IMG/VR virus record: IMGVR_UViG_2974694605_000001
Span: 20,294-84,293 of that record
DNA from: a virus
Length of the DNA stretch: 64,000 bases
Direction: 5' to 3' (one strand)
In this document: in pieces, positions 11,242 to 14,070 of the stretch
Layout of the letters: each line of letters starts with the position of its first letter
How positions within the stretch are numbered: the first letter of the stretch is position 1
The notes under the pieces: model-generated
Databases searched by the model: none
Seen by the model: the letters and a program-made list of their open reading frames with translations, nothing else
Told to the model about the DNA's origin: nothing
Position numbers and translations under genes: made by a program

Positions 11242-11270
11242 TTGACATTATATCTGAAATATGATATAAT
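11242..11270 (+). promoter_or_regulatory. sigma70-type promoter of tRNA-Arg/tmRNA unit
   Basis: TTGACA-17-TATAAT. Confidence 0.85.
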
Positions 11271-11881: not shown

Positions 11882-11910
11882 TTGACAAACATTAAAAAAT
11901 ATGTTATAAT
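11882..11910 (+). promoter_or_regulatory. sigma70-type promoter of ncRNA island
   Basis: TTGACA-17-TATAAT. Confidence 0.85.
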
Positions 11911-12070: not shown

Positions 12071-12266
12071 TAGATAAGATAGTAACACGAGTCTTATCGT
12101 CCCTCGCGGATGACATCTGGCGAGCTATCAAAATTTAGAGGTGCTTAGGAAAATAATAAAGATAGTCCTAATTGTTAAATGAGTAAAGCTATCCAAGTTG
12201 ACAGTAACTAACAGCCTTTTATTTATTATATGTCAGTGAACCTTTAACGTAGCTGGCATATAATAA

Positions 12267-12338
12267 CAGGATATAGTGTTAATGGTAGCATGCGTGTTTT
12301 GGGAACATGTAGTGCTGGTTCGAGTCCAGCTATCCTGA
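12267..12338 (+). tRNA. tRNA-Pro(TGG), no encoded CCA
   Basis: CAGGATA/TATCCTG acceptor; CGTGT-TTTGGGA-ACATG; GCTGG-TTCGAGT-CCAGC. Confidence 0.92.
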
Positions 12339-12544
12339 TGAGTGGTGTATAGTCCATAGACGAAGTGCTAAGCTATTGCGCAATACTTGGCACAACTATA
12401 CAAACATAAGAGTATGATAAATACCTGACGGGTGTAGCTACTATTTATTATAACTTCTTATGTCAGTTGCCAGAAACCTAGTGTATTAAATAGTCACGGG
12501 GTAAAGGATAGGAACAAAGACCTATTGAATAAGTGACAGCTGGT

Positions 12545-12603
12545 TAGAGTAATAGGTTGCAACAGGTCACGACTGTGGAGGGTTCGAGTCCCTTCTGCTC
12601 TGT
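12545..12603 (+). ncRNA. mini tRNA-like element (acceptor + T-arm only)
   Basis: TAGAGTA/TGCTCTG stem stacked on GGAGGG-TTCGAGT-CCCTTC; only about 24 nt interior. Confidence 0.5.
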
Positions 12604-12615
12604 TGAGGGAGCATA

Positions 12616-12781: not shown

Positions 12782-13297
12782 ATGACAAACCCAATTCTAA
12801 TCAAAGAATTAAGTTCTCAACTTAAAGAATATAGAGATGTCTTAACAGACATTATCAAGTTATCTGCACGTTCTGATGACCAAGCAAATTCAGCTAAAAA
12901 TATATTATTTCAAATATTTTATCAGACTGAATGGATGATTCAAATGTATGCTGGAAATTATGAAGAAAAACCGCATGGAGATTCAGAAGATTTAAGTTTT
13001 AAAGAAGGAAAAGTTTCTCAAAATATTGTAAAATATATTATGGATAACTTCAAAGGTATTCCACTTACAGAAGAAGGTTTGAGTAAGTTGACTAATAAAG
13101 AAAAAGAATTTTTAAAACCTTTCGAAGACCTGTTGTCTATCACCCACAGAATGATAAGGGCTGTTGTAGATTATTCAGATAGTCATTCTGAAAGTAAAAC
13201 TATAGACAGAACAGATGCACAACCTCTTAGTATTTTATATTTCATTGATTCACTGAAAGAAAGAACTATTTATGCATCACTAAAAGAAGTCTACTAA
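12782..13297 (+). CDS. hypothetical helical protein inside the ncRNA island
   Basis: 171-codon ORF with phage-like codon usage, AGG RBS. Confidence 0.65.
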   Translation: MTNPILIKELSSQLKEYRDVLTDIIKLSARSDDQANSAKNILFQIFYQTEWMIQMYAGNYEEKPHGDSEDLSFKEGKVSQNIVKYIMDNFKGIPLTEEGLSKLTNKEKEFLKPFEDLLSITHRMIRAVVDYSDSHSESKTIDRTDAQPLSILYFIDSLKERTIYASLKEVY

Positions 13298-13309
13298 TTT
13301 AGGTGACTC

Positions 13310-13790
13310 ACTACAGGTAGATTAGGCGTATGATATTATCCTTTGGTTTAAATCCATAAAGACAGGGCATAAAGCTCGACTGTGTGCCTATTGCATGCAA
13401 TAGATGACGGTTATATCTCGATACAATTGAAAGGAACTTTGAGTAGTTCGCCTTTATGGAAATGGGTTGTTAGTGTATACCGCACAAAGAAAACTATCTG
13501 TATCCGTTACTCTTGACGATATAAGAAGCTTAAAATCATGTTTGGTCTTTGCATATCCTTCCTAAAGACTAAGGTGTACCGATTGACGGTACTTAAATGT
13601 TATAGAGTTAACAGCCAATGGTTAACGAGTGGTAACAGTAGTTATTAAATGTTCAGCTGATGTAGTGAACAGCCAAACATATATTGGTCTTGATAGATAA
13701 TGTGAAGGTTATATTAGCTAGTCTATGATATAACTCAAAAAACTACTCGTACGGTACTCGATTTGTAGTTTGCCAATACACAGTTTGGTT
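13310..13790 (+). ncRNA. candidate large multi-domain structured RNA (about 480 nt)
   Basis: no ORF; three long-range closing stems (13312-20/13494-502, 13538-45/13673-80, 13682-87/13773-78), each enclosing several hairpins. Confidence 0.65.
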
Positions 13791-13867
13791 TCCCACTTCG
13801 TTTAAATATTGGAATAAGACTGCCTATTCGAGAACAGGCAACCTCGGTTCGATTCCGAGGGTGGGAA
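13791..13867 (+). ncRNA. tRNA-like RNA with 10-nt anticodon loop
   Basis: TCCCACT/GGTGGGA acceptor; TGCCT-ATTCGAGAAC-AGGCA; CTCGG-TTCGATT-CCGAG. Confidence 0.65.
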
Positions 13868-13895
13868 TTTAATTTGAAATATTATTACTTATCTC

Positions 13896-13924
13896 TTGAC
13901 AAACTCATTTGATTATGGTATAAT
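13896..13924 (+). promoter_or_regulatory. sigma70-type promoter
   Basis: TTGACA-17-TATAAT. Confidence 0.85.
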
Positions 13925-13962
13925 AATATATGTAAGTTAAAAAAACGTAAGGAGAACATAAT

Positions 13963-14070
13963 ATGGGGTGCTTAATTCCAATTGTATTAATTTTATTATT
14001 TCTAGCAAATCCAGTTTTGGGTTTAGTTGCAACAGCTATTGTATTAGCAATAGTAAGTCTTAAAAAATAA
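13963..14070 (+). CDS. 35-aa hydrophobic membrane peptide
   Basis: AAGGAG RBS; MGCLIPIVLILLFLANPVLGLVATAIVLAIVSLKK. Confidence 0.7.
   Translation: MGCLIPIVLILLFLANPVLGLVATAIVLAIVSLKK

Follow-up and report, generated by a model that had tools for sequence, protein, structure and literature searches.

The stretch at positions 13310-13790 of the window (the 64,000 nucleotides of viral DNA analysed here) appears, from comparison with related phages, to be a patchwork of short non-coding hairpin modules and not the single large RNA proposed in the first-pass annotation, in which some 480 nt folded into three multibranch domains. On balance, a transcript of the tRNA island probably has it as a structured spacer or as its 3' UTR, shuffled by recombination and probably trimmed at the tRNA-like element that follows it.

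The region is 98% identical to Lactococcus phage WRP3 (BLAST against about 50,000 phage records), and by this measure the window belongs to a WRP3-like phage of the 949 group, genus Audreyjarvisvirus; the whole genome record of this phage is 133 kb. Every gene, tRNA and tmRNA in the region lies on the + strand. The RNA island contains tRNA-Met, tRNA-Arg, a tmRNA, an odd tRNA and tRNA-Pro; three canonical tRNAs, one low-scoring odd tRNA and one tmRNA are located within 4.5 kb upstream of the stretch, and the tRNA-like element adjoins it. The earlier placement of the stretch in a phage tRNA island, the type of location known for ROOL and GOLLD RNAs, is thus borne out. Positions 13298-13962 form a 665-nt gap within the tRNA/tmRNA island, in which the only ORFs are of 32-44 aa; the part of the gap before the tRNA-like element measures 492 nt. 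PHROG and Pfam searches with these small ORFs gave no match, and 1-nt indels in relatives (949, 56301) break their frames, so that the candidates at 13382-13516 and 13538-13648 were rejected as genes. The stretch is non-coding, as had been assumed when it was put forward as an RNA.

In every 949-group relative, a 171-aa ORF comes before the slot that holds tRNAs or modules. Perfect extended promoters are present at 11242, 11882, 13896 and 15180. With strong promoters at 11882-11910 and 13896 on either side, and no terminator predicted between them, 13298-13868 is likely the tail of the unit that contains the 171-aa ORF. The TTGACG at 13514 was considered as a sigma-70 promoter and discarded; a -10 box is absent at the right spacing and the sequence downstream differs among phages. 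RNA sequencing runs hold only 5-12% of the stretch's words and do not bear on expression. In phage 949, a 1.3-kb insertion with a putative transposase (ORF91; L003:3403-4686) separates the equivalents of window positions 13891 and 13893, immediately before the 13896 promoter; neither the window nor any other relative examined has it.

Table 1. Features in and around the stretch, including the helices from which the large RNA had been built (window coordinates).
Feature	Position	Strand	Description
Module C, third U-type unit	12138-12216	+	5' of tRNA-Pro, outside the stretch; homologous to the Skunavirus unit after U1
171-aa ORF, function unknown	12782-13297	+	phrog_6282, E 1e-79; without Pfam match
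A1	13321-13424	+	local hairpins GGGC/GCTC 13365-13377 and palindrome; fold z +0.07
Sub-module a	13425-13463	+	hairpin GAACU/AGUUC 13434-13449; comes and goes independently of its neighbours (25 copies)
Sub-module b	13464-13534	+	most conserved part of A2; hairpin YCUU/AAGR, loop GACGAUAU, 13510-13528
Sub-module c, optional	13535-13571	+	hairpin GGUCUUU/AAAGACU 13544-13570; carries ATGTTTGG
U1, 45 nt	13572-13616	+	GGU, hairpin 1 (13576-13592), UUAAAUG, hairpin 2 (13599-13612), AGCC end of AACAGCC
A3, second U-type unit, in tandem	about 13617-13678 (unit 13629-13676)	+	hairpins 13631-13646 and 13650-13671, UUAAAUG, AACAGCC
B1, 113-nt spacer	13677-13789	+	three predicted hairpins, includes domain 3; fold z -1.15
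tRNA-like element	13790-13868	+	7-bp acceptor, 6-bp T-arm, loop UUCGAUU, 5-bp anticodon stem, 10-nt loop; z -2.4
Strong promoter bounding the unit on its 3' side	13896-13924	+	TTGACA, 17 nt, TG-TATAAT, 12/12
Helix closing domain 1	13312 / 13494		TACAGGTAG / CTATCTGTA; one G.U pair
Helix closing domain 2	13538 / 13673		ATGTTTGG / CCAAACAT
Helix	13576 / 13587		GTACCG / CGGTAC
Helix	13607 / 13621		GTTAAC / GTTAAC
Helix	13650 / 13666		TGTTCA / TGAACA
Helix of domain 3	13682 / 13773		TATTGG / CCAATA
Palindrome	13388-13403

The modules were delimited by BLAST against the same set of about 50,000 phage records and by pairwise maps, and their distributions differ widely. A1 occurs in only six records, namely WRP3, 949 and Skunavirus 56301, each filed twice. 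A2 (13425-13618) is matched by 377 records, nearly all from Skunavirus, 29 of them covering at least 80% of it; the part matched in most is U1. A3 and B1 together are found in 20 records, and A3 is held by WRP3, the AM phages, LW81, P1048 and 56301. B1 followed by the tRNA-like element (13678-13891) is present in all 949-group phages, B1 being confined to this group at 95-99% identity. Where modules are missing, other elements take their place: 949 and phiL47 contain a tRNA-like gene instead of A2 and A3 before B1, 949 has four tRNA genes in place of A3, and LW81, AM and P1048 carry two tRNA-Trp plus tRNA-Met or tRNA-Ile in place of A1. The junctions fall at 13314/21, 13424, 13618 and 13678, the last two each right after AACAGCC(AA). 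All parts occur together only in the window and WRP3, the rest of the relatives being mosaic, which is at odds with a conserved unit of about 480 nt.

A2 is itself composite. It consists of sub-modules a, b, c and U1, with an extra d in bIBB29-type phages, and these are present or absent as whole hairpins (25 distinct copies). In the hairpin of a, R3.4 and Phi5.12 have G for A, and the pair survives there as G.U. Sub-module b contains a 23-nt core that is identical in all aligned copies, from two unrelated phage genera, within a 31-nt stretch variable at only three positions; in collection scans, a 22-nt core of b was met in only three metagenome contigs and one genome contig. One pair of its 4-bp hairpin covaries, with UCUU/AAGA in 14 copies, CCUU/AAGG in seven and the mismatched CCUU/AAGA in two. 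Sub-module c is wholly deleted in 56301, CHPC958 and CHPC52, and its substitutions are confined to the loop. A1, A3 and B1 are 92-99% identical among their holders, and covariation is seen only in U1, the one pair of b and module C.

Relative to Skunavirus tails (e.g. L004:2321-2844), the order of shared blocks is permuted as well. Skunavirus 56301 contains the equivalents of 13321-13679, 12140-12226 and 12218-12604 in succession; the window starts with the 12140-12604 block and has the 171-aa ORF between the two blocks. A tRNA-Trp has apparently been lost from the window, with AACAGCC (12216) as one exact edge of the deletion and the spacer found after tRNA-Trp in Skunaviruses as the other. 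A bIBB29-type Skunavirus module set was also found on RZZU01000045.1 (L027), a 12-kb contig binned as a 'Clostridia bacterium' MAG; this is probably a mis-binned lactococcal phage contig.

The clearest structural signal comes from U1. A scan of IMG/VR located about 90 loci, from which 50 distinct copies were aligned; 99.1% of the cells are paired. Three pairs are changed on both sides, two of them between UA, UG and CG and one between GC and AU, and the covariation score was reached by none of 500 shuffles. Alifold found the same structure independently, with a z-score of -2.6 on the + strand and +0.3 on the - strand. This covariation, together with an alifold signal on the + strand only, makes U1 an RNA structure of the + strand. 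Of the structured RNA in the first-pass annotation, this part stands: its GTACCG/CGGTAC hairpin covaries (UA/UG/CG) in the 50 distinct copies; the three-domain architecture around it is not supported. U1 is a well-conserved RNA motif, absent from Rfam, carried by hundreds of lactococcal phages.

U1 scores 78 bits and shows every element of what we call a U-type unit, i.e., GGU, hairpin 1, UUAAAUG, hairpin 2 and AACAGCC, on the + strand and 5' of a tRNA or tRNA-like gene. The U1 covariance model ranks A3 second, at 16.3 bits (E 0.012-0.025), whether the window or the whole 133-kb genome is searched, and the A3 position also scores with this model in WRP3, LW81 and 56301; we therefore regard U1 and A3 as tandem units of one type. 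The fold predicted for A3 is a three-way junction. In module C, hairpin 1 occupies the same place with at least seven unrelated stem sequences, and the closing helix GCAGAGGG/CCCUUUGC, which runs into the tRNA-Trp leader, is partly confirmed. Two other identities for these units were considered. Aligning U1 as a diverged form of the phiL47/949 tRNA-like gene of the same slot had to be forced, and the similarity is unconvincing. They might mimic a type III antitoxin (AAAU within UUAAAUG; AbiQ/ToxN), but the units differ in length and no match was found among plasmid records.

In Skunaviruses, only a few nucleotides separate U1 from the stop codon of M4, the last middle gene, before it; U1 is followed by C, tRNA-Trp and tRNA-Pro or their remnants; the tract ends at cos. 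After the middle genes, every Skunavirus region examined has such a tract of 0.6-1.3 kb with no annotated gene. Phage p2 (NC_042024, 26.5-27.2 kb; L028:1195-1850) has about 1 kb of unannotated sequence after ORF49, containing U1 and module C, and its tail holds a good tRNA-Trp (55.9 bits) and three tRNA-like elements (39.9 bits, 29.3 bits and a bare T-arm), none of them annotated. Skunavirus genome papers mention only tRNA-Pro and tRNA-Trp in the tract (PMC8050962) or no tRNA (PMC6105707); papers on the 949 group mention tRNAs only, and the literature consulted places the replication origin only at the genome's rightward end.

The stretch ends, as first described, flush against a tRNA-like element, the cloverleaf-like fold of which begins at 13790. 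ARAGORN makes no call on 13790-13868 and the Rfam tRNA model (RF00005) gives no match there at E<=10, which makes 'tRNA-like' the right word; the anticodon loop has 10 nt where a tRNA has 7. The acceptor stem and T-arm, with a canonical T-loop, form in both the MFE and the centroid fold, as in an element suited to processing. With phage tRNA-Trp it has only generic tRNA features in common, and it was rejected as a decayed tRNA-Trp. Similar look-alikes occur before B1 in phiL47 (L036:1936-2002), where normal arms surround a 4-nt anticodon loop (RF00005, 42.5 bits), and in 949 (L003:3125-3191; 53 bits). The 949-group island contains a series of such non-decoding tRNA look-alikes, including the 23-nt-loop, 10-nt-loop and mini-tRNA elements of the window.

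In the reading we favour, 13298-13868 would be the non-coding tail of a transcript from the promoter at 11882 and part of a tRNA precursor, made up of a chain of modules (A1, a, b, c, U1, A3, B1), each folding on its own. Recombination at short shared motifs, notably AACAGCC, has shuffled the modules among the 949-group phages and with the unrelated Skunavirus phages. The U1/A3 motif comprises a short closing stem, hairpin 1, UUAAAUG, hairpin 2 and AACAGCC; in Skunaviruses it makes up the structured leader that separates tRNA-Trp from the last middle gene. What RNase P and RNase Z recognise is an acceptor stem with a T-arm stacked on it, and because of this general property of the enzymes we infer that they cut at 13790-13868. 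Cleavage would release either the 3' tail of the mRNA of the 171-aa ORF or, as a free RNA, at most some 490 nt, in which the hairpin chain may stabilise the RNA, block exonucleases or guide processing.

Two known systems offer parallels. In the tRNA cluster of phage T4, the stable species 1 and 2 RNAs, with no known function, are cut from the precursor by tRNA-processing enzymes; as non-tRNA RNAs co-transcribed with phage tRNAs they are the nearest functional parallel, the processing and stability of the lactococcal modules being presumed. The eukaryotic MALAT1-mascRNA type has a tRNA-like handle for processing of the 3' end, and likewise a tRNA-like fold adjoining a long non-coding RNA on its 3' side would let RNase P set the 3' end here, with a cut at 13790 predicted from the acceptor/T-arm geometry. 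Some observations run against the spacer reading: covariation is confined to U1, one pair of b and module C, the module folds are no more stable than those of shuffled sequences, and over the long stretch the minus strand scores better against shuffles than the plus.

It is possible, though we consider it unlikely, that the stretch is a relic of a decaying and rearranging tRNA array with no function of its own, with U1 kept only as part of the tRNA-Trp leader. Modules prove dispensable in one phage or another, decayed tRNA-Trp and tRNA-Pro lie beside the modules in many Skunaviruses, and the window and WRP3 lack tRNAs that LW81, AM, P1048, phiL47 and 949 have at this place; folding no better than shuffles would also suit a relic. 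However, U1 is maintained, with compensatory changes, where tRNA-Trp has decayed (340, bIBB29, 56301), the core of b is invariant in the aligned copies from both genera, and indels remove whole hairpins instead of random pieces.

More doubtful is an element acting at the DNA level, in which the hairpins and the AACAGCC and TTAAATG words would be protein-binding or recombination sites, such as an origin or targets of nucleases or recombinases. The coincidence of recombination junctions with AACAGCC, palindromes such as that in A1, the minus strand folding as well as or better than the plus relative to shuffles, and HNH genes and a transposase near the locus in relatives would all suit such sites. 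The changes in U1, however, pass through G.U, which would be a C.A mismatch if the opposite strand folded or if the DNA formed a cruciform, and its alifold signal is restricted to the + strand. The sk1 replication origin, presumably mapped at orf47 and not after M4, also counts against this explanation.

Hardly likely is the original proposal of a single ornate RNA of about 480 nt, with three multibranch domains, as a new class working like ROOL or GOLLD. All seven helices listed for it exist, 0-1 nt off their first placement, the MFE fold yields multibranch domains and the tRNA-island setting is that of ROOL and GOLLD. Such helices are, however, no commoner than chance: perfect complementary 6-, 7-, 8- and 9-mers number 51, 16, 5 and 1 in 13310-13790, and dinucleotide shuffles give 40, 10.7, 2.9 and 0.8 (p = 0.12-0.43). 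Fold z-scores range from +0.07 to -1.15 for single modules, and the 583-nt fold has -1.9 on the + strand and -2.7 on the - strand. The reverse complement of 13298-13880 outscores the + strand relative to its own shuffles, while the covarying U1 is on the + strand. Column-shuffled alifold z-scores on the + strand are -1.4 for A2+A3+B1 and -1.7 for A1-A3; the minus strand of A2+A3+B1 has -2.8.

Both closing helices, of domains 1 and 2, bridge junctions between modules, and relatives that lack one of the modules lack the helix too. Only the window, WRP3 and 949 have the first one intact; it is absent or retains two of nine pairs in LW81, AM11, P1048, 56301 and L018, and its 3' strand falls in a 6-7-nt indel. 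The second speaks for the large RNA in WRP3, AM11 and P1048, where all eight pairs are kept through wobble changes; LW81 loses one pair, and there is no partner in 56301 (without c), in L018 and 949 (without A3) or in the Skunavirus tails searched. A 9-bp helix, 13353-13361/13452-13460, would tie A1 to A2, but L018 breaks one of its pairs and 56301 two, none compensated. GTTAAC/GTTAAC competes for its bases with the covarying local hairpin GTTA/TAAC. A further long-range helix proposed by alifold, GGUUGUUA/UAACAGCC, was discarded; most phages have U1 without the partner, and L011 breaks it uncompensated. Because the closing helices fail in relatives, the GTTAAC bases are shared with a local hairpin and the alifold z-scores are weak, a conserved 480-nt architecture is not supported by the sequences compared. 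A warning follows for AT-rich DNA: a set of helices picked out visually is not yet a large ornate RNA.

An identity with ROOL (RF03087) or GOLLD (RF01998), named earlier as one option, finds no match among all families of Rfam 15: the stretch is unmatched at gathering score in a search of the whole window, and at E<=10 with lax filters the 900 nt of 13100-14000 match no family, these two included; nor does either appear in the relatives' loci at E<=0.1. Weak matches to SNORD63, NsiR4 and Xist were put down to chance. Both families are non-coding RNAs, of unknown function, that form homo-oligomeric nanocages; Lactobacillales and other hosts have them in their phages and prophages, often beside a tRNA island, and the GOLLD linker can contain tRNAs. 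The stretch has the same setting, but neither a covariance-model match nor a conserved large architecture: compared with ROOL, its long-range helices are not kept and only modules of 45-70 nt are widely shared, and the universally conserved 3' region of the GOLLD model has no match in it. A diverged member of either family, for which only the context of a Lactobacillales phage beside tRNAs speaks, is close to refuted by these searches and, for GOLLD, by the length of many members (>800 nt, against an ORF-free gap of 665 nt).

Another small structured RNA with no known function, the skipping-rope RNA (RF02924), lies in the same tRNA island in LW81 and 949. It scores 76 bits in both, directly after tRNA-Asp in LW81 (L002:1255-1333) and after an odd tRNA-like gene at 672-759 in 949 (L003:762-840); at gathering score the window has no match to it. 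As a motif it differs from the modules of the stretch, and so does its place (after tRNA-Asp).

The U-type motif is absent from Rfam, and no description of it was found in the literature consulted; as a structured RNA inside phage tRNA islands, it is of a kind already known. We think it rather improbable that U-type units form a new class of small phage RNAs that have their own function. If they do, the unit may be a decoy that engages a host RNase or a defence nuclease, or may modify RNA polymerase or RNase access in cis; hundreds of lactococcal phages would keep it in tandem copies, it would have moved between phage genera that are unrelated, and the WRP3-type 490-nt assembly would be a multi-unit scaffold released by tRNA-type processing. 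The motif is one more example to consider in asking why structured RNAs other than tRNAs lie in phage tRNA islands. Dairy fermentations are spoiled mainly by Skunavirus and 949-group phages, and a covarying RNA motif located in the Skunavirus tail and in the 949-group tRNA island provides a concrete target for deletion and RNA mapping.
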